Assembly (NCBI GenBank): GCA_964436165.1
Contig: CAYTBY010000001.1
Coordinates: forward strand, 6,777-70,776
DNA from: an uncultured Candidatus Saccharibacteria bacterium
GTDB lineage: Bacteria > Patescibacteriota > Minisyncoccia > 2-02-FULL-40-12 > GWA2-44-9
DNA: 64,000 nt
Reading direction: 5' to 3'
In this document: in pieces, positions 16,307 through 49,632 of the stretch
Layout of the letters: the number at the start of each line of letters is the position of its first letter
Position numbering within the stretch: the stretch's first letter is position 1
Notes under the pieces: model-generated
Databases searched by the model: none
What the model was told of the DNA's origin: nothing
The model's input: the letters and a program-made list of their open reading frames with translations, nothing else
Made by a program: the position numbers and the translations under genes

Positions 16307-16470
16307 AAGTCAAATTAGGACTTACGCGCTTGGGCTTTAAGAGCCCCAAAGCCAGCAAGCCCTAAAGGGTTTGGCCAATTTCTTCGTTAAAATCTCCGCT
16401 TAATCCTCGCCATACTTCTAGTATGGCTCGGCTTAATGCTCGATTTTGCCTCGAACTTGGCCAAACGCGT
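16307..16470. mobile_element. MITE-like structured repeat, copy A. The TA-flanked terminal inverted repeat is GGACTTACGCG...CGCGTAAGTCC. The interior is divergent.
   Basis: Termini are identical to the copies at 20930..21142 and 49451..49632. Intergenic. Contains internal palindromes, for example CCATACT-tct-AGTATGG. Confidence 0.45.
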
Positions 16471-16482
16471 AAGTCCTACTTC

Positions 16483-16501
16483 TAATTAAAAATCCCCGTA
16501 T
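16483..16501 (-). terminator. Terminator downstream of radical SAM gene 2
   Basis: AATCCCC-gtata-GGGGATT, with a T-run on the minus strand. Confidence 0.45.
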
Positions 16502-16507
16502 AGGGGA

Positions 16508-18580
16508 TTAAAAATGTCCGGCGATTTGAACAACGGCCTTACTGCCGTAAAGATAGGCACTTCTTTTACTGCCATACCAGACAACAAATCGGCACCAATC
16601 TTCCCAAGAATTCCATTGATCGGTATTGTAATCGATTGTAATCACCGATCCCCGTTTTTCCAACTGGATTGGTTCAGATCTAACCGCTGCTTTATAAAAT
16701 TCCCAAATATTATATGTTAGCGGCACTTCACGGTTACCGGTACGGAAAGGAAGTTTGAGCATATGTTCATTAAGTTCCACGGCTTCTCTTATCGCATCCC
16801 GATATTCACTCTTACCGTATCTGTCTAATAAAGATTCCAAGGCGCGATATGCTTCTTGGTAGAATGCAGAAAGATTCCCGTTAGTCGCGAGGTCTATTAG
16901 CATATATTCATCGGAGGGCCACCACATGTCAAGCCATTGGCTTGAATGGCAGAACTCTTCACCGCCCAGCTGAATTGACTGCGCTTTCTCAATAAAGAAC
17001 TGGTGAATTTTGTTAAGAATAGGGAAGTCAGCAGGTTGGCCAAACTGTCCTTCGGAAAAAAGCTCAATGAGTTTACTGTAACTTGCGCCGGTAAGCTCAT
17101 GGGTTAGGACCATCGGAATTTGAAATACTTTGTCAAAATGTAAAAATGCTGCGGTCCAGCTGAATGCGCGGACACGGACCCAATCTTCGCGCGGCATGGA
17201 TTTAGTGGTAATAACCATTTCTTGGTATTCAGGAACATCGTTTTCAATCTCTTTCCGGTTACCATGAATGTTAATTGTGCGTGCTTCAACCGTCTCCATG
17301 CCGAACTTTTCCCGATAGCTGGGATCAGCCATTTCAGCATTGGGTAAAATGGTTAAAATATAGAATAAAATTCTATCATGTAATCCGTTTCTGATGAGTT
17401 GATCTACGCCGTTGGTAAATGAGTCGTATGTTTCTCCCGGTAATCCGAGGACGATATCGGTAAAAGATGACACGCCATCGAGTTTCATTCTCTGCTGAAT
17501 TTCCTGATATGAGTCAAGACTGATGTTGTCCCGCTTGATATCTCTAAGAGTTCCAGGATCCATTGATTGCATTGAGAGCGAGGCTCCGGCAGCAAGTCCG
17601 GCTTCAGCAAAAATTTTCTGTACTTCATAAGAACGATCGGTTGCATTTTTCGTGTTTGAAACGGTAATTGAAGTCGGATAGCCGGTTCGTTTTCGAGTTT
17701 CAGCGCAGTATCTGGCTATATCAATATCTCGGGGAAGAATTCCTAAGTTTGCGTCAGCTAAGAAAATAAATTCAACTTTGTGATCTGCGAACCAATCCAT
17801 TTCTCTATATACTCGTTCCATCTCCCATTTATAAACCTTGGATGCTATCGCGGAACCCCAATCGCAAAATGTGCATGAAAATGGACAACCGCGATTTGTT
17901 TCCCAAACAGTAATCCATTTGATGTCGGGATTAGCCTTGATTATAGGTTCAAAAGTGCCCTCAAGGTATGGTGAAGGTAGTTCGTCAAGCTCTTTAAGAC
18001 GGGCGATTCTTTCGGTCTGAACAATGTATCTATCCTTATCTAAATAACTGATTGACGGAATCTTTCCCCAGTCCCCATATATATTTTCCAGGAGCAGTGA
18101 AAAAGGTCTTTCGCCCTCACCATGGCAAGCGATATCAATATAAGAGTTATCTCGTAAGTAGGCCTCTGTTCTTGCTAATGCGGGATCGCTTGAGTTTGGT
18201 TGATTTTTTTTCAAACTGCTAATCGTAATCGGAAGCTGTTTATTTTGTATGTGTGATTTATATTTATCCGGCACATGGGGCCCGCCTACCACAATAACAA
18301 TGTTCGGCTTTCTTGCCTTTAGCTCTTTGGCTATTGCAAGAGATAACTGATTATTCCAGACATAAAGACTGAAGCATGCGATATTGGAAGATATTAATTT
18401 TTTGACAGCTGAATCTACCGATTCTCGCGTAAAAATCGGAGAAAGGAATTGAAACCTGTCAATATTGGGAAGATTTTTACGCGCGTATGCTTCCAGAAGC
18501 CCAACGGAATACGGCAAATAGCTTGCTCCGGAAAAACCGGCGTTTATTTGGCATAAACCGACGGTAATTTTTTGATTCAT
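16508..18580 (-). CDS. B12-binding-domain radical SAM enzyme (690 aa, paralog 2)
   Basis: CPFSCTFC motif. Colinear with 7809..9956 from the N-terminus to the C-terminal ...WYGSKRSAYLYG. Confidence 0.75.
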   Translation of the reverse strand: MNQKITVGLCQINAGFSGASYLPYSVGLLEAYARKNLPNIDRFQFLSPIFTRESVDSAVKKLISSNIACFSLYVWNNQLSLAIAKELKARKPNIVIVVGGPHVPDKYKSHIQNKQLPITISSLKKNQPNSSDPALARTEAYLRDNSYIDIACHGEGERPFSLLLENIYGDWGKIPSISYLDKDRYIVQTERIARLKELDELPSPYLEGTFEPIIKANPDIKWITVWETNRGCPFSCTFCDWGSAIASKVYKWEMERVYREMDWFADHKVEFIFLADANLGILPRDIDIARYCAETRKRTGYPTSITVSNTKNATDRSYEVQKIFAEAGLAAGASLSMQSMDPGTLRDIKRDNISLDSYQEIQQRMKLDGVSSFTDIVLGLPGETYDSFTNGVDQLIRNGLHDRILFYILTILPNAEMADPSYREKFGMETVEARTINIHGNRKEIENDVPEYQEMVITTKSMPREDWVRVRAFSWTAAFLHFDKVFQIPMVLTHELTGASYSKLIELFSEGQFGQPADFPILNKIHQFFIEKAQSIQLGGEEFCHSSQWLDMWWPSDEYMLIDLATNGNLSAFYQEAYRALESLLDRYGKSEYRDAIREAVELNEHMLKLPFRTGNREVPLTYNIWEFYKAAVRSEPIQLEKRGSVITIDYNTDQWNSWEDWCRFVVWYGSKRSAYLYGSKAVVQIAGHF

Positions 18581-18663
18581 TAATTTTTGCCCATCCTTTA
18601 AATTTTAAAGAGCAATTTGTAGTACTTATAACACATATCATATAACTCGTCTATAAAGGGCAT

Positions 18664-18686
18664 AAAAAAGAGCCTCCTCGGCTCTT
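18664..18686 (-). terminator. Terminator overlapping the stop of the SDR gene
   Basis: aaaaaa + AGAGCC-tcct-CGGCTCT. Confidence 0.45.
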
Positions 18687-19635
18687 AAGTGTTTGTATAC
18701 TTATTGTTTCTGATAACCTGATATCCCTTGATTAGTTCTACAATCCCATCCCGTAACGATATTTGGGGCTTAAATCCGGTACTTTCTATCTTTTCGTTGC
18801 TTACAATGTAATTACGTTTATCCGGGTCTTCTCCGATGGACGCTTCGTGAAAATAAAAAGAGGGAATTTGTTTTTGTATTTCCTGGCATAGTTCAAGCTT
18901 GCTAAGATTGGCATTGCTTAAGCCGACATTGTATACTTGATTTTTCATTTGATCGAAGTTCTTGATGCAATGCAGGAACGCCCTGGCTACATCTCGGACA
19001 TGGATATAGTTTCTTTTGAAATGAGCCTCAAAGAGAACTAAGTAGCGGTCATTTAATGCACGATATACAAAATCATTGACAAGAAGGTCAAGCCGCATTC
19101 GAGGGCTTATTCCGAATACCGTGGCTAGGCGCAGTACGATTGAATTACCCCTCTCTAATACTAATTTTTCTGCTTCAACTTTTTGGCGGCCGTAAAGAGA
19201 GATCGGGTTAAGAGGAGCCTCCTCTGTGCAGTAAATACTGTCTTGACCTATGCCATAACCACTGTTGGTATTCGGGAAGATTACTTTTGGCGTCGAATCT
19301 TCAACCCATTTTTGGCATACTTCCACTACGCCGCCGATATTGACCGTGGTAGAAGTTACGGGATCTTTATCGCAAGCGGATGCTCCGACAATAGCGGCAA
19401 GAGGAAAAACATACTCGGGTTTATAATCTTTAAAAATTTTATCTATTAATTTCTCATCCCTTGTGTCGCCTCGGATTAGATTGAACCTATCAGGATAAGA
19501 GAAACATTCCAGAAGAGTGGTCTGACCATACATGAAATTATCTAATACGATTACCTCGTGGCCTTCATTAAGAAGTGTCGGTACTAAAACAGAACCGATA
19601 TATCCGGCACCGCCGGTGACTAGGATTTTAGACAT
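18685..19635 (-). CDS. NAD-dependent epimerase/dehydratase (extended SDR)
   Basis: [12 protein letters not shown] motif and a YxxxK motif. Confidence 0.7.
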   Translation of the reverse strand: MSKILVTGGAGYIGSVLVPTLLNEGHEVIVLDNFMYGQTTLLECFSYPDRFNLIRGDTRDEKLIDKIFKDYKPEYVFPLAAIVGASACDKDPVTSTTVNIGGVVEVCQKWVEDSTPKVIFPNTNSGYGIGQDSIYCTEEAPLNPISLYGRQKVEAEKLVLERGNSIVLRLATVFGISPRMRLDLLVNDFVYRALNDRYLVLFEAHFKRNYIHVRDVARAFLHCIKNFDQMKNQVYNVGLSNANLSKLELCQEIQKQIPSFYFHEASIGEDPDKRNYIVSNEKIESTGFKPQISLRDGIVELIKGYQVIRNNKYTNT

Positions 19636-20819
19636 CAGCTACCTCTACAGATTCTCAAAACTACATTCGAAATTAATTCGATATCTTTAGGTTCAAGGGA
19701 CGGATTGTTGGGAAGGAATAGACCGCAATCATAAATTCTTGTAGCCATAGGGGCTTGGAATTTGCCGTAATTATCATACCAGAAGGGATGAAGACCAAGG
19801 TTGCCGGCGGAGTAAAGTCTTGTTTCTATCCCATTTTCTTTCAGACTGGTGGCTATTTTGTCTCTTTCGGTTGAATCTTTAGCTAAGATGGCAAAATGGA
19901 TACTGGAGACCACTGAATCTTTATCGTAATTTTGGGTGTAAACATAATCGCCTAGTAAGCCTCGATACAGTTCATGATTTTCTCTTCTTCGCTTGATTGT
20001 CCATTCCAATTTATCCAATTGTCCCAATCCAATGAATGCTTGTATGTCGGTAGGCCGGACATTAAATCCGGGATAAAAGAAAGCAAAGGGACGATGGGCG
20101 GTGTCAATATTGTATTTACCAAAGATTCTGTTGTATGTTTCAGGATCCAGATGTTGGCCCCAGCCATGACTTCTGATCATTACCAGAATATTGTAAAACT
20201 CTTGGTCGTCAGTAAAAACAAGTCCTCCTTCAACGGTTGGCGATTGGTGGCCATAGTAAGTTGAAAAACTGGACATATCTCCGAATGTCCCGACTTTTCG
20301 GTTTTTGTAGCTTGATCCCACAGAAGCACAGGCATCCTCCAGTAAAAGGAATCTGTATTTTTCTTTCAAAGCTAGAATCTCATCCATTTTATGAGGCACA
20401 CCGAGAACTTGAACAAGCATTACTGTGGCGGGATGGTGTCTTTTGAGAAGTTCTTCCAAATGGCTTAAATCTAATCCGAATGTGTCTGGGTCGGCTTCGC
20501 ACATGATAGGTTCAAAACCAAATTGAATCGCTGGAGAAATTGTTGTTACCCAACCCACGCTAGGAACAATAACTTTCTTATTCATTAACTTACTGGAACA
20601 AAGAAGCGTATAATACATCAGTTGGTTGGCTGAAGATCCAGAGTTAACAAAGACGGCATGGTTGCTTCCCAACCATTCAGCCCATTTTTTCTCATATTGC
20701 TTGGTCATTTCATCCATTGTTAATCTCGGATTAGTTCTTAGCCAAGCAATTAGCTTTTCAATATCTTCCCGGTCAATGGTGTCGCCGGCTAAAGGATGTT
20801 TAGGAGTCGCGCTGTCCAT
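19635..20819 (-). CDS. DegT-fold PMP-dependent sugar 3-dehydratase (ColD/E1-like). The canonical PLP-lysine is replaced by histidine.
   Basis: DMSSFSTYYGHQSPTVEGG aligns residue-for-residue with DMTIFSFHPVKSITTGEGG of the PseC-like protein, and the H falls at the K position. This is the known hallmark of ColD/E1 dehydratases. Confidence 0.55.
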   Translation of the reverse strand: MDSATPKHPLAGDTIDREDIEKLIAWLRTNPRLTMDEMTKQYEKKWAEWLGSNHAVFVNSGSSANQLMYYTLLCSSKLMNKKVIVPSVGWVTTISPAIQFGFEPIMCEADPDTFGLDLSHLEELLKRHHPATVMLVQVLGVPHKMDEILALKEKYRFLLLEDACASVGSSYKNRKVGTFGDMSSFSTYYGHQSPTVEGGLVFTDDQEFYNILVMIRSHGWGQHLDPETYNRIFGKYNIDTAHRPFAFFYPGFNVRPTDIQAFIGLGQLDKLEWTIKRRRENHELYRGLLGDYVYTQNYDKDSVVSSIHFAILAKDSTERDKIATSLKENGIETRLYSAGNLGLHPFWYDNYGKFQAPMATRIYDCGLFLPNNPSLEPKDIELISNVVLRICRGS

Positions 20820-20890
20820 AAAACCACCTCTTGATTTTCAAAGTTCTTTCCCTGTGTTATATGAAACTTTTACGAATTCGTCAAATAAAA

Positions 20891-20918
20891 TCCCTCACCT
20901 TTCCGAAAGGTGAGGGGT
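20891..20918 (-). terminator. Hairpin CCCTCACCT-ttccgaa-AGGTGAGGG, probable terminator for the carbamoyltransferase transcript
   Basis: 9-bp GC-rich stem. On the minus strand it is followed by an A/T-rich tract. Confidence 0.35.
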
Positions 20919-20929
20919 AAAAACTATCA

Positions 20930-21142
20930 TAGGACTTACGCGTTTGCCCAAGATTGAGGCAAAATGCTTAAGTTTTTATGAGACGTACTAGGAGTACGAC
21001 GAGGAAAAACTTAAGTATTTTAACGACCGCGTGCCGCCTTAGCTTTAGCGGTGGCGCAAAAGATTGGGCAAACCTTTATGGCTTGAGCCACGTAAAGCCC
21101 TACTGATTTCGGGCTTCGTGGCTCAAGCGCGTAAGTCCTATA
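20930..21142. mobile_element. MITE-like structured repeat, copy B (about 213 bp)
   Basis: TA-GGACTTACGCG...CGCGTAAGTCC-TA termini. Interior nearly identical to copy C, plus about 30 extra bp. Confidence 0.5.
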
Positions 21143-21147
21143 TCAGA

Positions 21148-22842
21148 TTAGGCAGTTTTAGCGACTAGGTATCTGGCATTTAATACCAGGTAATCTATAT
21201 CCGTACCCAAGAAACAGTCGATTGCTTCTTGGGGTGTATTTATGATTGGTTGGCCCATGACATTGAACGAGGTATTTAATATAACTCCAATTCCGGTTAG
21301 ATGCTTGAATGCTTTCAGCAGTTTATAAAGGTTGGGATTTTGTTCTTCCTTTAGGGTCTGAACTCTTGCGGTCCCATCAATGTGGGTGATGGCCGGAACG
21401 ATACTTCTCTTTTCTTTCCTAACCCCGTAAGTTAAAAGCATATATGGCGATTGGTGGGTATTATCAAAATATTCTCCGCAATCTTCCTCCAAAACTATTG
21501 GCGCAAAAGGCCTGAAGCCTTCCCGATGCTTAACTCTTGAATTAAGAATATCTTTTATTTCTGCTGGAAATGGCGCAGTAAGAATCGAACGATTTCCGAG
21601 GGCTCGAGGGCCGAACTCAAATCTTCCGTTAAACCAGGCAATGATTTTTTGATCAGCCAGTAATTTAGCTACCAAAAGGAATAAGTCCTTAGGGTCGGTA
21701 TACTTTACTGAATTATTGATCAGAACACTTTTGATTTGTTCGTCCGTGTATTCGTTGCCCAAATAGGCGTTTTCCATCGTGTTGCGTTTGGCTTCGGGAT
21801 TCGCTTGGTAATGGTAGTTGAGCGCGGCTCCGATGCCAAGGCCGGCATCATTAGCGGCAGGTTGAATAAAGATATTTTTAAAAGGCGTTTCGGTTAGTAT
21901 TTTGCCATTGGCGACGCAGTTTAATGCTACCCCGCCAGCAAGGCAGAGATTTGATTCTCCAGTTTCAAGGTGTAAATTATTAGCGGCATGCACTAAAGCT
22001 TTTTCAGTTATATATTGCGCTCCGGCGGCGATATCTTTATGTTGCTGGGTAATTTTTTCTTGTGGCTCTCTAGCCGGACCACAAATCTCGGCAAATTTTG
22101 ACGACATGGTTGAACCTTGTATGAACGGATAATCAAAATAGCTCAAGTCCATTTCAAATTTGCCGTTAGGTTTTAGTTGGATAATATCATCAAAAACTTC
22201 TCTGTATTTTTCAATGTTTCCATAGGGCGCAAGACCCATGATTTTTCCTTCATCGCAATGTTTCTTGAAACCTAGCCAACCAGTAATGCAAGTATAGAGA
22301 ACTCCCAAAGAGCTTGGCCATTCAACATTATTTTCTTCGTAAGTGTATATATGGTTATCTTGTCCTCGTCCAATCATCAAACTTTCAATTTCGCCAACAC
22401 CGTCAACGGACAGTAGCGCACTGTGAGAAAATCCCGAGAGATAATAGGCGCTTGCCATGTGGGCAATGTGATGTCGACAAAAAGCAACTTCTTTTTTGAA
22501 GTTTAATTGTTCGCGTATTTCTTTTTCAATGTCCATGACCCTGTTGATCCATTTAAATTCAGATTCCATCCGAGGCCTTACTTGAGGATAATGGTTGAGC
22601 CAATGTCTAATAAATCTAAGACGTACGTGGGCGACCGGATCGGTCGGCACGCAGAAAACATCAACGTCTTCCATACTGATTTTTGCAAAGTCCAGGCAGG
22701 CCCTAATTGCATTATGAGGAAATTTTGGAGTGTGTTTTTCTCTGTTGAATCTCTCTTCTTCGGCGGCGTAAAGTAGCCGGCCATCCTTAACAATGGCCGC
22801 CGCGGCATCGTGGGAGAATGTCATCGCCCCAATAATTATCAT
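21148..22842 (-). CDS. Carbamoyltransferase (NodU/CmcH family)
   Basis: MIIIGAMTFSHDAAAAIVKDGRLLYAAEEERFNREKH N-terminus. C-terminal YrdC-like carbamoyl-adenylate domain. Confidence 0.8.
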   Translation of the reverse strand: MIIIGAMTFSHDAAAAIVKDGRLLYAAEEERFNREKHTPKFPHNAIRACLDFAKISMEDVDVFCVPTDPVAHVRLRFIRHWLNHYPQVRPRMESEFKWINRVMDIEKEIREQLNFKKEVAFCRHHIAHMASAYYLSGFSHSALLSVDGVGEIESLMIGRGQDNHIYTYEENNVEWPSSLGVLYTCITGWLGFKKHCDEGKIMGLAPYGNIEKYREVFDDIIQLKPNGKFEMDLSYFDYPFIQGSTMSSKFAEICGPAREPQEKITQQHKDIAAGAQYITEKALVHAANNLHLETGESNLCLAGGVALNCVANGKILTETPFKNIFIQPAANDAGLGIGAALNYHYQANPEAKRNTMENAYLGNEYTDEQIKSVLINNSVKYTDPKDLFLLVAKLLADQKIIAWFNGRFEFGPRALGNRSILTAPFPAEIKDILNSRVKHREGFRPFAPIVLEEDCGEYFDNTHQSPYMLLTYGVRKEKRSIVPAITHIDGTARVQTLKEEQNPNLYKLLKAFKHLTGIGVILNTSFNVMGQPIINTPQEAIDCFLGTDIDYLVLNARYLVAKTA

Positions 22843-22911
22843 CTCGCCATCCTTTTTAAGAAGCTGGGCATTATATACATGATTTTTAATAGTTAGTCAA
22901 TAAGCGTAATA

Positions 22912-25621: not shown

Positions 25622-26466
25622 CTACTGATATGTTCAGCCGTTTCGTCCCTGAATTTATTGACAAGCAACTCATGAATGATTGGATTTGCCGCAAGTATTG
25701 ATTTATAACCTACTTTCCATGGCTTGAGTTCTAGATTGGTGACTTTTGCTCCTGCCCCTTTCAAAATAATAGCGGCCGCGGCTATGTCTTCGGAGTCGAG
25801 TCCGGTAGCAAGAACTGCTTCAAGTCTGCCGTCGGCCACAAAGCTCAACGATGCTACAGCGCACGCAAATCCCACATCCGTCATAATACAAGGATTTTCC
25901 ATGGCTTTTACTAGGAAAGGCAGATGACTAGTTCTAAAACCTTGTTTATTTTTTAACTCTTTGCCAGAGTAAAAGCTCATGATAACCTTATTGAGTGAAT
26001 CTGCGTTGTTGACCTTAATTTGTTTACCATTGAGCCGTGAAGGTTCTCCAGCAACTCCGGTATACAGATAATCTTTAAACGGCATGTATATTACACCCAA
26101 TACAGGATCGCTACCTATACACAATGCCCGTGAAAAACAAAATCCATCAAAGTAGCGTCTTGTATATGCGATTGTTCCATCAAGTTCATCGTCAATCCAA
26201 GTGAAGGGGCTATCAGTTTTGTGGTCGTCTGATTCTTCAGAGTGAATATTGTGTTCCGGATAGGTTTCAGCGAGTTGTTTCCTTAACATAGCCGATACTC
26301 TAGTATCAGCTTCAGTTCTGAAATGAACCCTTCCCGTCCATTCGATATCGTGATTAGAGTCGTATAAATCCATATGGATTTTACCGGCAGCTTTGGCCGA
26401 GGCAGTCGCAAATTCTAAAAATTCTGACTTTCTTTGTATAAATTCAGTCCATGGGTCTGGGTGCAT
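25606..26466 (-). CDS. Inositol monophosphatase / CysQ family phosphatase
   Basis: EE metal site (SEESDD), WIDDELDGT, and a C-terminal DxxD-type motif. Confidence 0.65.
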   Translation of the reverse strand: MHPDPWTEFIQRKSEFLEFATASAKAAGKIHMDLYDSNHDIEWTGRVHFRTEADTRVSAMLRKQLAETYPEHNIHSEESDDHKTDSPFTWIDDELDGTIAYTRRYFDGFCFSRALCIGSDPVLGVIYMPFKDYLYTGVAGEPSRLNGKQIKVNNADSLNKVIMSFYSGKELKNKQGFRTSHLPFLVKAMENPCIMTDVGFACAVASLSFVADGRLEAVLATGLDSEDIAAAAIILKGAGAKVTNLELKPWKVGYKSILAANPIIHELLVNKFRDETAEHISRWGVV

Positions 26467-26573
26467 TTTGTGCCCTTTTCTTTTTTAATGAACAGACCGT
26501 TACATATTGTATCCCTAATCATTCCAAGAGTCAAGTTGCTAATTCTTATAGGAATGTTAAAGTATTTGTATTT

Positions 26574-27071
26574 ATGGCTATAATTACAAAAAAAGATTTT
26601 ATTAAAATTAGACAAAAACACTCAGATAAAAAGATTGTCTATTGCGACGGCTCTTTTGATCTTACTCATGCCGGTCATGTATTATTTTTTGAAGAGGGTA
26701 AATCAATGGGGGATGTATTAGTGGTTGGAGTCGGTGCGGATTCAGATATTAAAAAATATAAAGGCAAGACTAGGCCGATTCTTAACCAAAGCGTGAGATT
26801 GAAAACAATAGATTCTCTCAAGCCGGTGGATTATAGTTTTTTGAATAAGCTTCCTAGTCAAAAAAACCTTCTTTCGCATTTGGAAGTTAATTTTAATAAG
26901 TTAAAACCCGACGTCTATCTAATTAATGAAGATGCGTTTAATATTGAATATCGAAAAAAAATTTCAAAACAATATAGTGTGAAAATAGTAATGGCTCATC
27001 GGGTTTGTCCCCCCAATTTTGATAAGATCTCCACGTCTAAGATCATAGATAAAATTAAGAGACTAGACTAA
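26574..27071 (+). CDS. Cytidylyltransferase-family nucleotidyltransferase, HxGH class (paralog 1)
   Basis: CDGSFDLTHAGHV is an HxGH motif. The ISTSKI motif is present. An ATG at 26574 is preferred; the ORF table start at 26451 adds 41 non-conserved residues. Confidence 0.6.
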   Translation: MAIITKKDFIKIRQKHSDKKIVYCDGSFDLTHAGHVLFFEEGKSMGDVLVVGVGADSDIKKYKGKTRPILNQSVRLKTIDSLKPVDYSFLNKLPSQKNLLSHLEVNFNKLKPDVYLINEDAFNIEYRKKISKQYSVKIVMAHRVCPPNFDKISTSKIIDKIKRLD

Positions 27072-28419: not shown

Positions 28420-28929
28420 ATGGAGAGTAAGAAAACCATTGCTCAGATAAAAAAAGATTTGATAGCTTTACGCAAAAATAATCCTGGCAAAAAAATTGTT
28501 TTTTGTTCGGGAAGTTTCGATCTTCCTCATGCCGGACATGTTCTTTTTTTTGAAGAGTGTAAAAAACTAGGCGATATTTTGGTAGTCGATTTAGGCAGTG
28601 ACAAGTCTTTGAGATTGACGAAAACGCCCGATCGCCCGATTCTTAATGAGCATGTGAGATTTAAAGTCGTTTCTTCTTTGAAGCCGGTTGATTATTGTTT
28701 TGTGGATAGAACAAAAAACGGACATAAAGTAAGTTCACTTATTTACTACTTCAAAACTTTAAAACCTGATATTTACGTTAACAATACAGATGCCAAGCGA
28801 TTAACTGAGGGCCAGGAAGTGGCTAGGAAAAACGGAGTAAAAATGGTTGTTTTGGACCGGACATGTCCCCCGGAGTTTATATCTATTTCTACCACTAAGA
28901 TTATTGAAAAAATTAAAAATCTCAATTAA
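28420..28929 (+). CDS. Cytidylyltransferase-family nucleotidyltransferase, HxGH class (paralog 2)
   Basis: CSGSFDLPHAGHV and ISTTKI, a paralog of 26574..27071. Confidence 0.6.
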   Translation: MESKKTIAQIKKDLIALRKNNPGKKIVFCSGSFDLPHAGHVLFFEECKKLGDILVVDLGSDKSLRLTKTPDRPILNEHVRFKVVSSLKPVDYCFVDRTKNGHKVSSLIYYFKTLKPDIYVNNTDAKRLTEGQEVARKNGVKMVVLDRTCPPEFISISTTKIIEKIKNLN

Positions 28930-43048: not shown

Positions 43049-43049
43049 T

Positions 43050-43507: not shown

Positions 43508-44062
43508 ATGGAGACAGCCATGCAACTTATTAAAAGCACTTGTTTTGAGCAACTATTGCAAAATATTCGGCAGGAAGAATTAAGGAGAATGGAATCAGAA
43601 CGATTAAAACAGGAGAAAGATAAAAACCATGAGCTTATTAACAGATCATTTCGTGTAATTTATTTATCGGTCATGTCATCATATTTCTATTTAAGACGTG
43701 TGCACAATATGCCAGAAAGACCTCTTACGCTTCAGGAGTTTGAAGCTGTTACTGAACATCTAAAAAAAATAGGCGGACAAACCGTTAAAAAATTTAGACA
43801 TAGATTAGTTCACGCCTTCCGGATTGATACGGCTTGGCATTATTATCTAAAGCATGGCCATTTTCCAGAGAAGAAAACTCCTTTCGGAAGGTGGTACGAT
43901 AATCACCCACTCATTGGTTTTAACCATTTTGATCCTTTTGCGGATCGTAAAAGTTATCGGGACGATTATAATTATAGTATTCCACCTAATATAGATGCAT
44001 TGATTAGAGAAATAAAGGATAAACAACTTGGCCAATGCGAGTCAGAAAGGAAGGGGGAGTGA
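43508..44062 (+). CDS. Hypothetical soluble protein, family Q member 1 (N-terminal METAMQLIKST)
   Basis: Colinear with 46380..46964 (SIMSIYFYLRKVHNM, GWHYYLEYG, FGWWY, IPPN). AGGAG RBS 6 nt upstream of the ATG at 43508. Confidence 0.4.
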   Translation: METAMQLIKSTCFEQLLQNIRQEELRRMESERLKQEKDKNHELINRSFRVIYLSVMSSYFYLRRVHNMPERPLTLQEFEAVTEHLKKIGGQTVKKFRHRLVHAFRIDTAWHYYLKHGHFPEKKTPFGRWYDNHPLIGFNHFDPFADRKSYRDDYNYSIPPNIDALIREIKDKQLGQCESERKGE

Positions 44063-44577
44063 TGGAAACGATAGCGTTAATTAAGTCGACGGCATTTGAG
44101 GGCTTGGTCTCTAAATACCGAGAGGAACAAGAGAAGTATTCGAATTCAGACCTGAATATAGGTCGGGTTAATATAATTACTCGGCAAGTAAAGACCGCTT
44201 ATAATTTTCTGTGTAAATTTGGCAAGCCCCACTCCAGTATGACTTTTGATGAATTTGAAGTGACTGATGGTGAAATAAAAAGAATTCAGCAAGACGAGCT
44301 TCGTATAAATGAAGAGAACCTAAAGGAAACACCGTTTTTTAGGTTCATTAAAAGGCACTCAATATCACAAACGATTTCTAAGAGTCGTTATATTCTTAAA
44401 TGTGGCTATTATCCAGCTTTTTACAAGAATACCTTTTTGGGCCAGTGGACTAATTATAGAGAAGAAGTTCCCCTTAACTTACCAGAGCTAGTGAAAGAGA
44501 TTTGTTTGGCTCGTTGGTGTGTCAGTATCAAACCAGAAGAGATTAACCGTTATAATGAAAACGATAGTCAGAGTTAA
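44062..44577 (+). CDS. Hypothetical soluble protein, family Q member 2 (N-terminal METIALIKSTAFEGL)
   Basis: TGATG stop/start overlap with member 1. AAGGGGGAG RBS. The table start at 44035 would overlap the upstream gene by 28 nt. Confidence 0.35.
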   Translation: METIALIKSTAFEGLVSKYREEQEKYSNSDLNIGRVNIITRQVKTAYNFLCKFGKPHSSMTFDEFEVTDGEIKRIQQDELRINEENLKETPFFRFIKRHSISQTISKSRYILKCGYYPAFYKNTFLGQWTNYREEVPLNLPELVKEICLARWCVSIKPEEINRYNENDSQS

Positions 44578-44634
44578 TGAATTGAACCCAAACACATCAC
44601 ATCTATCTACAGAACCAGAAAGGAGCGCAGAGTG

Positions 44635-45165
44635 ATGGAAACAGCAGTTCAGACAAGGGAAGAGTCAAAACTGATTCTGCCTTCAGGAACGGAAAAATTG
44701 ATGGCCAGAGTCAGGGTCTTAGAGGCCCAGGCATTAAGCGCGAGAAGTGCCGAAATATCAGGAGAATATAAGGGCCAATATAAATTTGCCCTCAGTAGGC
44801 TTGCTCGAAGGTGGCTATCTTTAAAGGAAATTGGTCAATTATCAGAAGAAGAGTACTCAGCGCTGGATTTTATTGTTTATAAAAAATCAGTTCGTCAGTT
44901 AACAATCTGGGGCTTGGCAAATACAGTTATTCTTATTGCGGGGACTTGCCCAGTATTATTGATTCCTGGTTTTGGAACATCCGTGCTGATTTTTATTGTC
45001 TTAGTACTCCTTGCGATGGCTAATGGGCTTTACTTTGATCCTGATCCTAAGAATCCTATGTCGTTCGGAAATTCTATATTTAAATTCTTGAGAGCAAGAA
45101 GGTTTTTGAAAGAACAAGGTTGTCTTGGCCTGGAAATTAAAAATGATGCCAACAGCAGAAGTTAA
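44635..45165 (+). CDS. Hypothetical 2-TM membrane protein, family P member 4
   Basis: LSLKEIGQLSEEEYSALDFIVYKKS block. N-terminal METAVQ. Confidence 0.35.
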   Translation: METAVQTREESKLILPSGTEKLMARVRVLEAQALSARSAEISGEYKGQYKFALSRLARRWLSLKEIGQLSEEEYSALDFIVYKKSVRQLTIWGLANTVILIAGTCPVLLIPGFGTSVLIFIVLVLLAMANGLYFDPDPKNPMSFGNSIFKFLRARRFLKEQGCLGLEIKNDANSRS

Positions 45166-45841
45166 TCAATCTGCCCCTCTTTTTCTTAACCCGGCTGAGT
45201 CTATCATCAGGTCAGACAATATATTATTTAAGTTACGAGCAAAACTGGAAAGTAAAAAATCACCAAAACTTCTGGCCTCTGTAGTTTATTGTCTAGCCCT
45301 TAAAGCTCAAAAGAAAATATTGGCCTATCTCAACGATGATGATTTTTTCTGCCAAGTATTGTGGGATTCAAGGATCGGTTTACCGAGTTCTCCCTCGCTG
45401 GCGGCAGATGTGGCCAAATGCGCAGAGGTATTTGATTTGTCTCCAGAACTGAAATCATTGCTAAATTCTTTGTCCGGCTGGGTTCTTTTTAAAAAAGAAC
45501 AAATGCCATGTTGCTGTGGAGGCAAAGAAAGAATGGTGGATATAGATATTATGATGAATACTATCCTGAAAGTCGAAAACAGCAGTTTGACCGTAAAGTT
45601 TCTTGTCGGAGTAAAAAGCGATGATCAAGACCATCTCGAAAAGCATTATAAGACAAAGAGGCAGAGCAAGGTTGATAGCGGTTTAATTATTATTTTTACT
45701 TGTGAGAATCAAATTACGGCATCAAGCGACGGCCTAATGCCGGTAATAGAATCGATGGATTTCAGTCATGATGAACAGTTACATGTCCCAGAGCTTGAGA
45801 AAAATATTTGGAGCGCAGTCGCTTCAATGGCGGAGTCATAA
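45125..45841 (+). CDS. Hypothetical protein (238 aa), Cys-rich (CCCGG)
   Basis: ORF only. The true start is probably an internal Met, because it overlaps the upstream gene by 41 nt. Confidence 0.25.
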   Translation: MAWKLKMMPTAEVNQSAPLFLNPAESIIRSDNILFKLRAKLESKKSPKLLASVVYCLALKAQKKILAYLNDDDFFCQVLWDSRIGLPSSPSLAADVAKCAEVFDLSPELKSLLNSLSGWVLFKKEQMPCCCGGKERMVDIDIMMNTILKVENSSLTVKFLVGVKSDDQDHLEKHYKTKRQSKVDSGLIIIFTCENQITASSDGLMPVIESMDFSHDEQLHVPELEKNIWSAVASMAES

Positions 45842-45858
45842 GACCCCGCTTTTTGTTT
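45829..45858 (+). terminator. Probable terminator
   Basis: GCGGAGTC-ataa-GACCCCGC with one mismatch, followed by TTTTTG. Confidence 0.35.
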
Positions 45859-45953
45859 GTAAATTTTAATAAAACCCGTACTTGACATTGAGTCAATATT
45901 TTGTTATCAATTTTTCAGTGAATGTGTTGGTCCCTTAACAAAAAGGACTCCAG

Positions 45954-46367
45954 ATGGAAACAGGAACCCTTATTAAGCAGACTATCGAGGAACAGGTGTT
46001 TATCAAGATAAACGTGATGAGACAGAACGAGCTGACCGCAAAACAAGCGAATGAGATTGAAAAGCTGGAAGGACGTATTAAGTGTGATTTCTTTCTTCTA
46101 GTATGGAAATATTTTGGTATTAGTGAATGTCAGGCAAAGCAATTCTCGGACCAGGAGCTCAAGGCCTTATTTTTTATTGTTCATAAAAAAGCTGAAAAAA
46201 CAGCTGTGTATATAAAAACACTATCTGCTATTACGGTGGTCGGTTGGTTTATGGTCAATTCTTATGGTGCTGGTTCAGATACGGTAGATTTTACAAATTC
46301 CGTCCGAAAACTTAAGAAAAAGTTGGGTAATAGTTTTGATCCGGTTAAAATATTACGTTCTATATAA
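45954..46367 (+). CDS. Hypothetical single-pass membrane protein, family P member 5 (N-terminal METGTLIKQT)
   Basis: LLVWKYFGISECQAKQFSDQELKALFFIVHKKAEK block and LKKKLGNSFDPVKIL tail. Confidence 0.4.
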   Translation: METGTLIKQTIEEQVFIKINVMRQNELTAKQANEIEKLEGRIKCDFFLLVWKYFGISECQAKQFSDQELKALFFIVHKKAEKTAVYIKTLSAITVVGWFMVNSYGAGSDTVDFTNSVRKLKKKLGNSFDPVKILRSI

Positions 46368-46379
46368 GGAGGAACAAAA

Positions 46380-46964
46380 ATGACTGAAACCGAACTGGCT
46401 CTTTCGGAGAGTAATATTGACGGACGGCTTATTAAGAGTACTCGTTTTGAAGGTATTTTGGCCAATATCAAGGCTGAACAGGATAAGCACAATCAGGAAA
46501 TGTTGAAGGAATTTGAAAAAAATAAAACAAATGAACTGGTTCAGAATGAATTTCGTAAAATATTCAGATCAATTATGTCGATATATTTCTATTTAAGGAA
46601 GGTTCACAATATGGACAGAAGGGATTTATCTATTGAAGAATATGAGGCGACTAGAGATCATTTGAAAGAAATGGGAGTTAGAGAAGTAAATAAATTAAGG
46701 AACAGATTATTCGGTTCCTTGGGGATAAAAACCGGGTGGCATTATTATTTGGAATATGGATATTTCAAAATTGGCCGAACTCCTTTCGGGTGGTGGTATA
46801 GGTCTCATCCGCTATTTAGCCATGAAGGGTTTGATCCGTTTGAGAGATCTGATCAATTTAGTTCTGGTACCGGTAATTATAGTTATTGCATACCCCCCAA
46901 CATGAAAGTTTTAATGGAGGAATTATTTAAGAAACAAAGTTGCGGAGGAAAGGATTCAAATTGA
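46380..46964 (+). CDS. Hypothetical soluble protein, family Q member 3
   Basis: Colinear with 43508..44062. AAGGAGG RBS. Confidence 0.4.
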   Translation: MTETELALSESNIDGRLIKSTRFEGILANIKAEQDKHNQEMLKEFEKNKTNELVQNEFRKIFRSIMSIYFYLRKVHNMDRRDLSIEEYEATRDHLKEMGVREVNKLRNRLFGSLGIKTGWHYYLEYGYFKIGRTPFGWWYRSHPLFSHEGFDPFERSDQFSSGTGNYSYCIPPNMKVLMEELFKKQSCGGKDSN

Positions 46965-47002
46965 ATGCCATTTAAGATTAACCGAGTTGATTATCAGCGG
47001 AG

Positions 47003-47027
47003 CACTAAGCTCCGTTTTTTATTGAGT
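47003..47027 (+). terminator. Rho-independent terminator
   Basis: CGGAGC-actaa-GCTCCG followed by TTTTTT. Confidence 0.5.
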
Positions 47028-47056
47028 AAAGCCCAGGTTTCTGTTATTTTTATAAG

Positions 47057-48382
47057 GTGATAAATCTAGTATTGAATAGGCTCAATTACTACCGACAGAG
47101 TTTGTTTGTCAGGAATGTGGCGACATTGCAGGTAGGGAGTTTTGGGGGAACATTGGTTCAGGCGGTTTTTGGAATACTTATTGCCCGGCTCTTACAGCCG
47201 GAGCTTTTTGGTGTTTACAGCTTATCTATCGGTCTGGCCGCTTTAGCCGGTTTGCTTTTGGGGGCCGGAATGCAGGATGCGGTGGGGACTTTGGTCGGTT
47301 CGGCTTATGCTAAAAATGACAGAGAAGAACTACAAAATGCCTTGGCTTTTCTTTTAAAAATCACTTTCTATGCCGGAATTTTAACTTTAATTATTTTCTT
47401 TTTTCTTCCGTCGCTGACCGAATATTTTTATAGTAATTCGCTTATCGGCTGGTATGCCGGCATAGTTCTGCTGGCCGTCTTTTTTTCCACTTCTTTCAAC
47501 GCTGTAGTCCAGTTAAGTTTGCAGGTGGCCGGCAAAATTAAAGCCCTGGCTTTACTGGTTTTTGGCGATCAGTTTCTGCGGTCAGGGTTGTCGCTACTTT
47601 TGATATTTGTCGGCCTCGGTGTTTTCGGCGGAGTAAGCGGACAGTTAGTCGGTTCTATAGGTGTATTTATTTTTTCTATTTTAATGTGGCGGAAATTAAG
47701 GAAGGTTTATTCAATCTTTCCATCATTGACGGAGCTTTTTAACCGAACCAAAAGTGTCTCGGTATTTAAATATTTTGGTTTCAGTTTCTGGGTGGCGGTG
47801 GATAGGAATATGGGTAATTTATATATGGCTTTGCCGGTGGTATTAACCGGTATTTATGTCTCGACGGGAGAGGTGTCTTTTTTTAAGCTTGCCTTTGGTT
47901 ATCTTAACATTGCCTTGAGCTTACTCGGCCCCATATCAGTTCTTTTAAACATGGAGTTTCCCAAGATTCAGGTTGAAGATTCCCGTCAGTTGAGGAATAA
48001 CTTTATTAAGATTTCGGTGTTTGGTCTGGTTATTTCCATTGTCCTTACTCTTGCCGCTATTCTTGTATCTCCGTTGGCCTTCAGAATTTTATATGGTGAA
48101 AGTTTTCTGCCCAGCGTCAGCTATGTTTTTGGCCTGGCGGCCTATGGAGCGTTATATGGAATTGGCGTCGGTCTTGGGCCGATGTGGCGGGCGATAAACA
48201 AGGTTAAAGTTTCAATACTTATCAATATCATTATCTTGGGAGGAGGTATTCCGCTCGGCCTTTGGCTCATAAAGCACTACGGTCTTTGGGGTTCAGTTGT
48301 AATGGTGACACTTTGGTTTACTATTTCGCATTTGATATCATTTATTTATCTGATGAAAAAATTAAATAATCGGAATGTATAA
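47057..48382 (+). CDS. Polysaccharide biosynthesis protein, Wzx-like flippase (MOP superfamily)
   Basis: 441 aa, about 12-14 TM helices. N-terminal region typical of oligosaccharide flippases. Confidence 0.55.
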   Translation: MINLVLNRLNYYRQSLFVRNVATLQVGSFGGTLVQAVFGILIARLLQPELFGVYSLSIGLAALAGLLLGAGMQDAVGTLVGSAYAKNDREELQNALAFLLKITFYAGILTLIIFFFLPSLTEYFYSNSLIGWYAGIVLLAVFFSTSFNAVVQLSLQVAGKIKALALLVFGDQFLRSGLSLLLIFVGLGVFGGVSGQLVGSIGVFIFSILMWRKLRKVYSIFPSLTELFNRTKSVSVFKYFGFSFWVAVDRNMGNLYMALPVVLTGIYVSTGEVSFFKLAFGYLNIALSLLGPISVLLNMEFPKIQVEDSRQLRNNFIKISVFGLVISIVLTLAAILVSPLAFRILYGESFLPSVSYVFGLAAYGALYGIGVGLGPMWRAINKVKVSILINIIILGGGIPLGLWLIKHYGLWGSVVMVTLWFTISHLISFIYLMKKLNNRNV

Positions 48383-49478
48383 AAAACCAGCCATCATGTT
48401 AGTTATTGTTATCGGATCAGTGCTTATTTACTTTTTGATTGCTACACCCATAATGATGGATGACGGTACTCACTATGAAGGATTTACTGAGTCGTTGGCA
48501 ATGGGTAACTTGGATTTCAAATCTTTTTATGGTTTTCAGGGCCTGTCTATTTTATCGGTGCCGATATTTTGGCTTACTGGTTCGCACATATCAATTATCA
48601 TCACTTCCGCCATTTTGTATTTATTGGCTTTGCCTTTAGCATATTTTATTGGACGTAGTTATTATCAAAGCAATAGGGCTGGGTTTTATTTTGTGGCGTT
48701 GATTTTGCTTATGCCCTACACTTATACGACAATGATGCGAGGATTTCAGGAAGCGGGGCTTTTATTTTTTATTCTTCTTATCATTTACGGGGCAATTAGT
48801 AAAAAAACATGGACGCCTGTCTCATGGGCTGTCGGAGGAATTGTTAAACCTTTCGCCTTGGTCCTGTTCCCTCTTTTTGCCAAAGATTTTTTTGACCGGA
48901 AGAAAATTATCTGGATTATTGTTGCCGGTGCGATCGGCACTGCCTATTTGAGTGCTAGCTATTATCAAACCGGACATTTGATAAATAATGCGGCCATTAA
49001 TTCTTATCAAGGAAACTTTGATACCGGCAATCCTCCGCCCCTGACCGAGAGTTTCACCGTCGGCATAAAAGGATTTTTGAGGGTTGGAGCTAATTTATTT
49101 TTACACTATAGGAAAATTTTAATATCGCCGTTGATTATTATTCTTGGCGGTTTAACTCTGCTCCTAAAAAAAGACCTAAGATTGCGGAAGGAAATAATGT
49201 TGGCTATTTTATTAAATTTTATCTTGGTTGGAAGTTTGACGTTTTCTTTTTCAAAATATCTTTTACCGATGGCAGTTCTGCTGGCCCTGGTTTCGGTTAA
49301 TTATTTGTTAAAATATAAATGGCTGATGCCGTTAGTTCTAGCCGACTCCTTATTTATATTTCTGCCGATATGGGGCTATTTTGGCGTTGATTTTTGGAGT
49401 AATATCTACCTATATCTAGCCCCATATTATTTAGCTGTCTTTATCTATATTAGGACTTACGCGTTTGCCCAAGATTAA
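48375..49478 (+). CDS. Polytopic membrane protein (367 aa); possible glycan polymerase or GT-C-like enzyme
   Basis: About 10 or more TM helices. The last 9 codons and the stop lie inside MITE copy C. Confidence 0.3.
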   Translation: MYKKPAIMLVIVIGSVLIYFLIATPIMMDDGTHYEGFTESLAMGNLDFKSFYGFQGLSILSVPIFWLTGSHISIIITSAILYLLALPLAYFIGRSYYQSNRAGFYFVALILLMPYTYTTMMRGFQEAGLLFFILLIIYGAISKKTWTPVSWAVGGIVKPFALVLFPLFAKDFFDRKKIIWIIVAGAIGTAYLSASYYQTGHLINNAAINSYQGNFDTGNPPPLTESFTVGIKGFLRVGANLFLHYRKILISPLIIILGGLTLLLKKDLRLRKEIMLAILLNFILVGSLTFSFSKYLLPMAVLLALVSVNYLLKYKWLMPLVLADSLFIFLPIWGYFGVDFWSNIYLYLAPYYLAVFIYIRTYAFAQD

Positions 49479-49632
49479 GGCAAAATGCTTAAGTTTTTAT
49501 GAGACGTACTAGGAGTACGGCGAGTAAAAACTTAAGCATTTTAACGAAAAGATTGGGCAAACCCTTGCGGCTTGAGCTACGCTAAGCCCTATAGATTTTG
49601 GGCTTCGTAGCTCAAGCGCGTAAGTCCTATAT
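49451..49632. mobile_element. MITE-like structured repeat, copy C (182 bp)
   Basis: TA|GGACTTACGCG...CGCGTAAGTCC|TA termini. Three nested stem-loops, including a perfect 17-bp inverted repeat AAAATGCTTAAGTTTTT/AAAAACTTAAGCATTTT and a 12-bp inverted repeat GCTTGAGCTACG/CGTAGCTCAAGC. Confidence 0.55.

Follow-up and report, generated by a model that had tools for sequence, protein, structure and literature searches.

ISAba11, an IS701 family member of Acinetobacter baumannii, is 1,101 bp long (PMC7760358) and has been described with a 5-bp direct repeat, including TATAG and ATTTA (bioRxiv 10.1101/2020.10.08.331108). The elements analyzed here, located in a 64-kb stretch of DNA (the window), have the terminal sequence TAGGACTTACGC in common with ISAba11 at both ends (TAGGACTTACGCATTG...TGCGTAAGTCCTA in ISAba11 vs TAGGACTTACGCGYTTG in the window), and in both cases a 5-bp AT-rich target-site duplication (TSD) is found outside a TA. 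Like the full-length ISs of CPR genomes, ISAba11 is compact, with about 1.1 kb and a single DDE transposase, whereas the window elements are non-coding sequences of 163-211 nt whose interior has no relationship to any IS. In protein sequence, ISAba11 and the parent IS from CPR share only about 36% identity, the transposase signature is HHEK in the former vs R(3)E(6)K in the latter, and the hosts are Moraxellaceae in one case and Patescibacteria in the other. A second relative, ISPlag1 of Planktothrix (IS701 group), has the inverted repeat CAGGACTTACGCA, and its 197-bp remnants bearing this repeat have been implicated in genome rearrangement (PMC2464740). Its inverted repeat starts with the same core, with CA in place of the TA of the window copies, and its transposase motif CAIRWKIEEFHREIK is close to DCRWKIETFHRGIK of the CPR IS. 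ISPlag1 differs in size (1,306 bp, 337-aa transposase), and its remnants have been described as deletion products flanking a lost gene cluster rather than a proliferating family of structured MITEs.

Several MITEs of other bacteria resemble the present family. The non-autonomous bcr1 of the Bacillus cereus group (about 155 bp, 5-bp direct repeats) is transcribed and keeps a cruciform-like structure by compensatory base changes at the RNA level (PMC3184786). It has no sequence relationship to the present family, occurs in other hosts, is presumably moved by another enzyme, and its transcription was shown experimentally, whereas that of the present copies is deduced from their position. Nezha of Anabaena and Nostoc, a MITE of 130-170 bp, has direct repeats and is predicted to fold stably. 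Filled and empty sites have been reported for it, as has an IS (ISNpu3) that carries its terminal inverted repeats in another species (PMC3184786); the likeness of Nezha and ISNpu3 to the present family is one of description. Chunjie (Geobacter), Correia (Neisseria) and ERIC (enterobacteria) are also listed as MITEs (PMC3184786). As with the copies described here, these are short hairpin-forming MITEs between co-directional genes that leave the operon unbroken, but they differ in termini, TSDs and parent IS families. The hairpins in their RNA can affect how an mRNA is processed or how stable it is.

With a probability of about 0.88, we consider the window repeats to be non-autonomous MITEs of a TAGGACTTACGCGYTTG family with ISAba11-group ends, mobilised in trans by an IS and folding into a compensated three-way junction.

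Copies in the window and their boundaries

The repeat family was confirmed with three copies in the window, all located in a sugar-coat (surface polysaccharide) gene cluster of a bacterium of the candidate phyla radiation (CPR). The three repeats of the preliminary description were real, while its coordinates had to be shifted: copy A occupies 16316-16478 instead of 16307-16470, copy B ends at 21140 and copy C at 49629. The copies and their ends are as follows.

16316-16478, minus strand: MITE copy A, 163 nt, inverted relative to B and C
20930-21140, plus strand: MITE copy B, 211 nt
20925-20929: left TSD of B, TATCA
21141-21145: right TSD of B, TATCA
21026-21057, plus strand: private insert of copy B, a 32-nt GC-rich hairpin (-13.7 kcal/mol alone) in the junction strand
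49451-49629, plus strand: MITE copy C, 179 nt
49446-49450: left TSD of C, TATAT
49630-49634: right TSD of C, TATAT
49451-49467, plus strand: left terminal inverted repeat of C, 17 nt, TAGGACTTACGCGTTTG, 16/17 positions vs the right end
49613-49629, minus strand: right terminal inverted repeat of C, 17 nt, TAGGACTTACGCGCTTG on the minus strand

All six ends of the three copies are perfect 17-mers TAGGACTTACGCGYTTG. Even when up to three mismatches were allowed, this 17-mer had six matches in the window (0.11 expected), all of them perfect, and GGACTTACGCG likewise matched six times in three convergent pairs (0.49 expected). Within each copy the two 17-nt terminal inverted repeats can pair at all but one of their positions (16/17); the left one of C, with the same terminus as ISAba11, is the presumed site of transposase recognition and cleavage. 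None of the copies (163, 211 and 179 nt) has the capacity to encode a transposase. Copy A, which was thought to keep only the termini, is full-length in the opposite orientation, can be aligned over its whole length with B and C and forms the same three-way-junction fold with compensatory changes. B and C had been called near-identical apart from a 30-bp indel; their identity is about 88-94% in two blocks flanking the insert of B, which measures 32 nt and was not found in C, in A or at any other locus searched.

As the preliminary description had observed, TA is present on both sides of every window copy, and it is found next to nearly all family elements (69-73 of 74 per side). MITEs that derive from IS630 and duplicate TA are frequent in bacteria, and the dinucleotide had been interpreted as the TSD of an IS630/Tc1-mariner-derived MITE. 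However, a 5-bp direct repeat lies directly outside the TA, exact in 33 of the 74 family elements (0.85 expected) and with one mismatch in a further 11 (3.8 expected), while no other direct-repeat length was enriched among these 74 elements. Copy A carries no intact TSD, with CAAAT (16311-16315) vs CTTCT (16479-16483) differing at three of five positions. The same layout is seen for ISAba11 in pRBH2-4, where the element aaaga/TAGGACTTACGCA...TGCGTAAGTCCTA/aaaga (slashes mark the boundary) measures exactly 1,101 bp with the TA inside and is flanked by the 5-bp TSD AAAGA. Relatives have CA at the homologous terminal position. The IS701 end consensus is ---YACT- and the classical IS701 TSD is 4 bp (PMC2266710); ACT occupies positions 5-7 of the inverted repeat and matches this consensus only if the TA is counted.

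Empty sites allowed both boundaries to be compared by excision. Two loci contain the gene pair orthologous to that around copy C without the element, the genes overlapping by 38 nt. In-silico excision of C together with one 5-bp copy yielded an upstream gene ending in ...YATRISRFNPNS and a stop codon, vs ...YATRISHPNPNS in the homologue, and thereby restored the native C-terminus found in MITE-free orthologues, whereas excision under the TA model produced an unrelated protein tail. For site B, a syntenic MITE-free counterpart was found via a metagenome scan with the carbamoyltransferase, a protein for which no exact database record exists. Because of the 5-bp repeat outside the TA, the layout of ISAba11, the CA in relatives and the outcome of excision, the TA is not a TSD: it represents the outermost two bases of the inverted repeat, and the TSD is 5 bp.

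The designation as MITEs was upheld. The repeats are short and non-coding, have terminal inverted repeats and TSDs (A excepted), occur in multiple copies, share their ends with an autonomous IS and are missing from orthologous empty sites. The family is new, while MITEs of this kind are known.

Parent IS and distribution of the family

Four full-length ISs with the same terminus (1,067-1,074 bp) encode a 322-aa transposase, the stop codon of which falls inside the right inverted repeat. With 368.8 bits, this transposase exceeded the cutoff of 250 on NF049921 ('IS701 family transposase'). It matched Pfam DDE_Tnp_1 and DDE_5, was 36% identical over 89% to annotated ISAba11-family transposases and contains the motif R(3)E(6)K (RWKIETFHRGIK). 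The autonomous IS was found in other Patescibacteria MAGs, and tblastn detected no cognate transposase in the 64-kb window. Going by the elements that share these ends, the cognate transposase is one of the IS701 family, ISAba11 group. A search for a cognate IS630-family transposase had been proposed, and all transposase-bearing elements with these ends proved to be of the IS701 family. Together with the 5-bp duplication, the ISAba11 boundary, the CA of relatives and the excision outcome, this leaves an IS630/Tc1-mariner origin with practically no probability, despite the TA adjoining so many elements. No TSD was present at any of the four full-length ISs (0/4), which could be due to chimeric MAG assembly or inter-copy recombination. 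Copies in the Methanoregula chromosome had only one recognisable end in the stretches examined. The scan of viral contigs gave no match to the 17-mer and thus no evidence of phage carriage.

In genome contigs only convergent pairs of the 17-mer were counted; since about 140 single matches are expected by chance in 596 Gb, single matches were not taken as evidence. By this measure, 68 MITE-sized elements in other genomes share the ends, and their interiors fall into 30 unrelated clusters. Of the MITE-sized elements, 94% fold with a z-score below -4. The interior of the window copies is unrelated to that of the IS. The positions at gene 3' ends within a polysaccharide cluster and the strong structure would also suit repeats that are not mobile, such as gene-associated regulatory hairpins, REP-like or integron attC-like sites sharing ends by chance. 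This explanation is contradicted by the diversity of the 5-bp TSDs, by filled and empty orthologous sites, by identical termini on transposase-encoding ISs and by the occurrence in both orientations next to unrelated genes at more than 60 loci, and we regard it as extremely improbable.

Mobile elements of Patescibacteria/CPR are poorly catalogued, and our literature search found no paper that connects MITEs with CPR or with the ISAba11 group. The corrected annotation (TA inside the inverted repeat, 5-bp duplication, parent IS family) applies to a repeat widely distributed among Patescibacteria/CPR MAGs, and the 17-mer provides a simple marker for finding these elements.

The three-way-junction fold

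The copies had been described as highly structured, which the folding check bore out: all three fold far more stably than shuffles, with -97 kcal/mol for C (z -12.9), -104 kcal/mol for B (z -10.5) and -79 kcal/mol for A (z -8.6). Instead of the three nested stem-loops proposed earlier, the interior forms a three-way junction, in which two hairpin domains lie next to each other and are closed off by a terminal stem. In P1 the outer halves of the two inverted repeats pair with one another, while P2 and P3 each pair one inner inverted-repeat half with an internal segment. In copy C the two domains consist of the following parts.

49463-49562, plus strand: P2 domain, closed by a 10-bp stem between the inner left-repeat half (49463-49472) and its internal copy (49553-49562)
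49482-49500 with 49524-49542, plus strand: P2 inner stem, 19 bp, enclosed by the 10-bp stem
49503-49510 with 49514-49521, plus strand: P2 apical stem, 7 bp
49570-49617, plus strand: P3 hairpin, with a 12-bp stem (49570-49581 with 49606-49617) that includes the inner right-repeat half
49584-49589 with 49600-49605, plus strand: further stem of P3, 6 bp

Covariation was analyzed in an alignment of 26 copies from about 20 MAGs of several CPR classes. In these 26 sequences, 95.8% of the cells were paired, vs 84.6% after shuffling and 25-44% for the slid controls. Double changes were observed in 20 of 43 pairs (107 cells vs 31), P3 had compensated changes in 10 of 21 pairs, and the covariation score was 0.288 vs 0.093, with controls that remove phylogenetic non-independence only in part. 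The fold is probably conserved under selection, with a putative role.

Hairpin-templated correction is an established mutational mechanism, and compensation could be a by-product of mutation without selection, arising from template-switch correction of quasi-palindromes or from gene conversion among copies. One-sided intermediates of the G-U type are very few relative to double changes, and the symmetry of both strands as well as the lack of a significant orientation bias relative to transcription (13 opposite vs 6 same, binomial p about 0.17) fit a process acting at the DNA level. On the other hand, whole segments of 4-5 bp have been swapped (AAAA/TTTT to TTTT/AAAA; GTACT/AGTAC to CCGCC/GGCGG) while the junction bases beside them stayed fixed across lineages in different CPR classes, and internal loops and bulges have been kept rather than corrected into perfect palindromes. 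We therefore consider a purely mutational origin of the compensation rather unlikely.

A different possibility is that the Y-shaped interior represents a selected functional module riding on ISAba11-type ends and spreading horizontally among Patescibacteria classes, acting as a transcript-stabilising or insulating cis RNA, as a small RNA, or as a DNA/RNA fold aiding synapsis or transposition; selection would then keep the fold for that function rather than just for being harmless. In favour of such a module are the compensatory covariation of P2 and P3, which is strong and seen in copies of several CPR classes, the 13 unpaired columns that are at least 90% conserved, the co-transcription suggested by position and the analogy to bcr1, which is transcribed and compensated at the RNA level (PMC3184786). 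A second genome, moreover, contains a family member at the same nucleotide position that is 83.8% identical, vs 48% at the saturated third positions of the flanks. However, both of these copies have greater similarity to copies at other sites (89%), so independent insertions fit. The absent orientation bias argues against a module as well, and unpaired and junction positions of the interior were not more conserved than stems (1.18 vs 1.31 bits, p=0.26). Rfam 15 at gathering thresholds gave no match in the whole window, and a permissive E-value search with copy C returned only sub-threshold plant miRNA-hairpin noise (E of 0.07 or above). The 30 unrelated interiors on the same ends are nearly all simply strong hairpins, which suggests generic palindromy rather than one specific function. 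Taken together, a functional module appears unlikely. If it were true, repeated occupancy of the same junction across species would indicate domestication or a structural hotspot, not chance.

Insertion targets are AT-rich, with a weakly informative profile of at most 0.7 bit per position, and strict target-sequence specificity was ruled out on these grounds as the cause of same-site reuse. In a hand tally of the stems, G-U occurred in 25 cells over 10 pairs vs A-C in 10 cells over 7 pairs, an asymmetry too weak and too non-independent to serve as a pointer to the functional strand. No feature of the copies pointed to a specific RNA strand or to a sequence-specific core.

For non-autonomous MITEs mobilised in trans, the history of the family may be pictured as follows. 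A compact autonomous IS of the type found in related Patescibacteria genomes would supply the DDE transposase, and insertion, as the comparisons show, takes place in AT-rich DNA and duplicates 5 bp. In these very compact genomes a tolerated insertion would almost always lie inside an operon and hence be transcribed along with it. Persistence and further spread would then be limited to copies that fold up into a self-contained hairpin structure, which would most likely be the reason for the conserved fold, and persisting copies would be free of promoters, U-tract terminators and orientation dependence. Alternatively, the fold may contribute to transposition efficiency. The family combines a single set of termini with at least 30 interiors and with strong covariation, and it offers a natural data set on why MITEs keep hairpins. 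ISAba11, which is experimentally active in Acinetobacter, offers a tractable surrogate system.

Effects on neighboring genes

Nearly all resolvable copies (19 of 20) are located between co-directional genes, and we infer from this position that the copies are co-transcribed inside co-directional operons. No promoter-like or terminator-like sites were found inside the copies. The elements give rise to protein tails encoded by the MITE (RTYAF...), separate genes that overlapped before and introduce structured 3' UTRs. The affected surface-polysaccharide loci are variable regions that are likely relevant to the interaction between episymbiont and host.

Each of the three window sites is affected in a different way. 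Copy C, assumed like the others to be strictly intergenic, is inserted in the 3' end of ORF 48375-49478, which runs nine codons into the element and has its stop codon there. The native tail YATRISRFNPNS is thereby replaced by RTYAFAQD and a stop, and the ORF is parted from the GT2 gene (ATG at 49637), with which it formerly overlapped by 38 nt. Copy B is located past the stop codon of the carbamoyltransferase gene (21148) but ahead of that gene's intrinsic terminator (20892-20916) and, given this position, is predicted to be transcribed in antisense orientation as a structured 211-nt addition to the 3' UTR upstream of the terminator. Copy A lies directly upstream of a promoter-like site of the next gene (16313-16286), between this site and the terminator of the radical-SAM gene (16491-16509).

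The three copies in the window

Six occurrences of the 11-mer GGACTTACGCG were counted in the window, arranged in three convergent pairs (0.49 occurrences expected). With the probe TAGGACTTACGCGYTTG and up to 3 mismatches allowed, the same six sites were recovered, every one of them perfect (0.11 expected); since nothing further appeared even with mismatches, the copies number exactly three, and the window has neither solo nor decayed ends. The three repeat copies of the preliminary description are thus real, and their highly structured nature was likewise borne out by folding z-scores of -8.6 (A), -10.5 (B) and -12.9 (C) against dinucleotide shuffles.

MITE copies in the window (corrected coordinates)
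16316-16478, opposite orientation to B and C, MITE copy A
20930-21140, MITE copy B
49451-49629, MITE copy C

Other details required revision. Copy A, thought to keep only the termini, is a complete copy in inverted orientation, and B and C, considered near-identical, share 88-94% identity in the blocks flanking a 32-nt insert private to B. Nor are all copies strictly intergenic, as the ORF at 48375-49478 reads nine codons into C. The insert of B (window 21026-21057) is GC-rich, folds at -13.7 kcal/mol and was not found in any other locus compared. GC-rich mini-hairpin inserts of about 21-43 nt were observed at varied positions inside AT-rich MITE copies, namely B and two loci from other genomes (L037:3950-4177 and L055:3689-3915); such inserts may form a second layer of very small palindromic insertions, nested in the MITEs.

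Element boundary and parent insertion sequence

The TA dinucleotides bordering the copies had been interpreted as a duplicated target. The inverted repeat of ISPlag1, an IS701 group element of Planktothrix (CAGGACTTACGCA; PMC2464740), suggested that TA is the terminal dinucleotide instead, and five lines of evidence disagree with the earlier interpretation and agree that TA belongs to the inverted repeat and that the target-site duplication (TSD) is 5 bp long. First, a 5-bp direct repeat directly outside the TA was exact in 33 of 74 elements (permutation mean 0.85, maximum 5) and present with one mismatch in 11 further ones (3.8 expected), and flank repeats of 2, 3, 4 and 6 bp were not enriched among these 74. 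The TSD is TATCA for B and TATAT for C; no 5-bp TSD was found for copy A. Second, ISAba11 as found in pRBH2-4 runs aaaga, then TAGGACTTACGCATTG...TGCGTAAGTCCTA, then aaaga, and measures 1,101 bp from TA to TA; the published length of ISAba11 is 1,101 bp (PMC7760358), and a 'characteristic 5 bp direct repeat' has been described for it (bioRxiv 10.1101/2020.10.08.331108). Third, CA replaces TA at the homologous terminal position in elements of Gloeocapsa (CAGGAGTTACGCA) and Piscirickettsia (CACGAGTTTCGCA). Fourth, the IS701-family end consensus ---YACT- puts ACT at positions 5-7 (PMC2266710) and therefore fits the window ends only with TA counted. Fifth, in-silico excision of C together with one 5-bp copy restored the tail of the ORF as ...FIYIYATRISRFNPNS*, the tail of the closest MITE-free homologue being ...FIYVYATRISHPNPNS, whereas excision under the TA model yielded an unrelated protein tail.

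A 17-mer scan of one genome per species returned at least 118 loci, and those listed came mostly from MAGs of Patescibacteria (candidate phyla radiation, CPR), Saccharibacteria among them. Because chance alone would give about 140 single 17-mer matches in 596 Gb (our own arithmetic), only convergent pairs were counted. This left at least 72 paired elements outside the window, 65 of them MITE-sized; these 65 from the matches listed and the three window copies form a set of 68 MITE-sized elements. Four full-length insertion sequences (ISs) of 1,067-1,074 bp, encoding a 322-aa protein, were present among the matches listed.

Full-length ISs in other genomes (locus and coordinates)
L035:6485-7558, full-length IS
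L075:5098-6170, full-length IS
L025:1080-2152, full-length IS
L107:161-1227, full-length IS

The 322-aa protein matched NCBIfam NF049921 ('IS701 family transposase') with 368.8 bits (cutoff 250) as well as Pfam DDE_Tnp_1 and DDE_5, and the CPR transposase shares 36% identity with the annotated 'IS701-like element ISAba11 family transposase' of Acinetobacter plasmids. The transposase on elements bearing these ends is consequently of the IS701 family and not, as had been anticipated, of the IS630 family. No IS701-type transposase was found within the 64-kb window, and nothing of the MITE interior was found in the IS. In every feature that could be compared, the window elements agree with MITEs and with derivation from the ISAba11 group (IS701). 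Assignment to the IS630/Tc1-mariner MITEs was rejected on both defining features.

The layout of the IS is very compact: the left inverted repeat measures 17 nt, the leader is about 97 nt long, and the transposase ORF terminates within the right inverted repeat (final codons and stop TTG GCA AAC GCG TAA), which places the inner repeat under coding as well as transposase-binding constraint. At L035:6485-6506, and likewise in L075 and L025, the ORF end reads TTG GCA AAC GCG TAA GTCCTA. A host ORF running into an insertion can also find a TAG or TAA stop in the element terminus. None of the four full-length ISs exhibited a 5-bp TSD (3-4 mismatches each), compared with 44 of the 74 elements overall; chimeric flank joining in short-read MAG assembly or inter-copy recombination are possible causes.

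Fold and covariation

The minimum free energy structures of the copies are three-way junctions, in which the outer 12 nt of the two inverted repeats pair with each other (P1). In P2, the left repeat's inner half is paired to an internal copy, and a long bulged hairpin is enclosed; in P3, the right repeat's inner half is paired to an internal segment. An alignment of 26 copies from about 20 MAGs, with interiors related to those of the window copies, gave a consensus of 43 pairs, and both-sided changes were observed in 20 of these. The shuffle controls in the following comparison ignore phylogeny.

Covariation in the 26-copy alignment (observed; column shuffles; slid partners)
Cells paired: 95.8%; 84.6%; 25-44%
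Double-change cells: 107; 31; 16-34
Covariation score: 0.288; 0.093; 0.03-0.08

Among the 15 copies sharing the long form of P3, 10 of its 21 pairs were compensated. G-U cells outnumbered A-C cells by 25 to 10 in a hand tally, a weak signal that is not independent. Conservation did not differ between unpaired interior and paired columns (1.18 vs 1.31 bits, p=0.26); near-invariance was confined to the inverted repeats (1.88 bits). Orientation relative to transcription was unbiased (13 opposite, 6 same). Covariation and conservation together indicate that the pairing and the ends are constrained; nothing points to a sequence-specific core or to a particular RNA strand. Clustered by interior, the 68 MITE-sized elements (65 from the matches listed) gave 30 unrelated groups, of which the window's, with 31 members, is the largest; 94% of the elements had a folding z below -4, which makes strong self-complementarity a property of the whole superfamily.

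Structured, co-transcribed MITEs with compensatory changes are known, bcr1 of the Bacillus cereus group among them, and bcr1 resembles the window family in having 5-bp direct repeats (PMC3184786). In the literature searched, neither CPR MITEs nor MITEs of the ISAba11 group were described. The family is of interest mainly for CPR genome annotation and as a clean case for why MITEs keep folds.

Insertion sites and distribution

All three copies lie within a surface-polysaccharide cluster encoding radical-SAM, epimerase, DegT aminotransferase, carbamoyltransferase, flippase, GT2 and Wzy proteins. Neighbouring genes were co-directional at 19 of the 20 family members with both sides resolved, the MITE often filling the entire spacer, and no promoter-like or terminator-like sites were detected inside the copies. 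Copy A has a terminator 12 nt upstream and a promoter-like -35 hexamer 3 nt away, and B is located between a stop codon and the terminator of that gene. At copy C, one gene lost its final 12 codons and gained 8 from the MITE, and two genes that formerly overlapped now stand apart, with the GT2 ATG 8 nt from the element. Two pairs of paralogues in the cluster, B12-binding radical-SAM genes (window 7809-9956 and 16508-18580; DNA blocks of 73-79% identity, constantly 8,693 nt apart) and two smaller genes (window 26451-27071 and 28420-28929; 73% blocks, 1,861-nt spacing), have sequences that point to segmental duplication.

Empty counterparts were observed for two of the insertions. In L140 and L141, the contigs of the MITE-free homologue, the two genes have a 38-nt overlap, identical to that in the MITE-excised window sequence, and these are true empty sites for C. 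In L119, whose carbamoyltransferase is 73% identical to that of the window, the stop TAATC... is followed by a terminator within 16 nt and then an aminotransferase gene; at site B the same TAATC precedes TGATA-MITE-TGATA and then the terminator, TGATA being the duplicated TATCA read on the minus strand. The MITE-free homologue itself (P0003, L140:447-1625) carries a private in-frame insertion of 21 residues in a loop region (HLSGIGGKAAPSKEQFPISAG; A5 columns 146-166), absent from all 12 other aligned homologues.

The gene beside C has homologues assigned by name to Candidatus Yanofskybacteria or Patescibacteria, and the most similar MITE among the matches listed (89%) is from a Yanofskybacteria MAG, which makes a patescibacterial host very probable. 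In a second genome (GCA_030697885.1, JAUYOT010000016.1; L139:3598-3776), a family member starts at the nucleotide position of C in the orthologous gene and encodes a similar tail, RTYAFGQ... (RTYAFGQVRDKIKD). Identity between the two MITEs is 83.8%, against about 71% for the flanking genes and 48% at third-codon positions of these genes. Both MITEs have nearer relatives elsewhere (89%) than each other, and the 5-mers flanking the second no longer match; we read the pair as two independent insertions at one of the few tolerated sites, a single inherited, constrained insertion being less probable. The target profile is weakly informative (AT-rich, A at -2, Y at -1, R at +6).

Some element-bearing MAGs are labelled Bdellovibrionales, Gammaproteobacteria or Planctomycetales, these being either correct labels or mis-binned CPR contigs. 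One MITE interior cluster is common to Bdellovibrionales-labelled loci (L015, L023, L110) and Moraniibacteriota (CPR) loci (L053, L063); either the element crosses phyla or the labels or bins of these TPA MAGs are wrong. Paired copies or related transposases were also present in archaeal records, namely Methanoperedens (L061) and a Methanoregula chromosome (L019, L049, L074). At L139:1-247, a 368-residue product with Pfam matches to GDP_Man_Dehyd and LAGLIDADG_3 suggests a putative intein or homing-endonuclease insertion in the sugar dehydratase gene of this CPR MAG.
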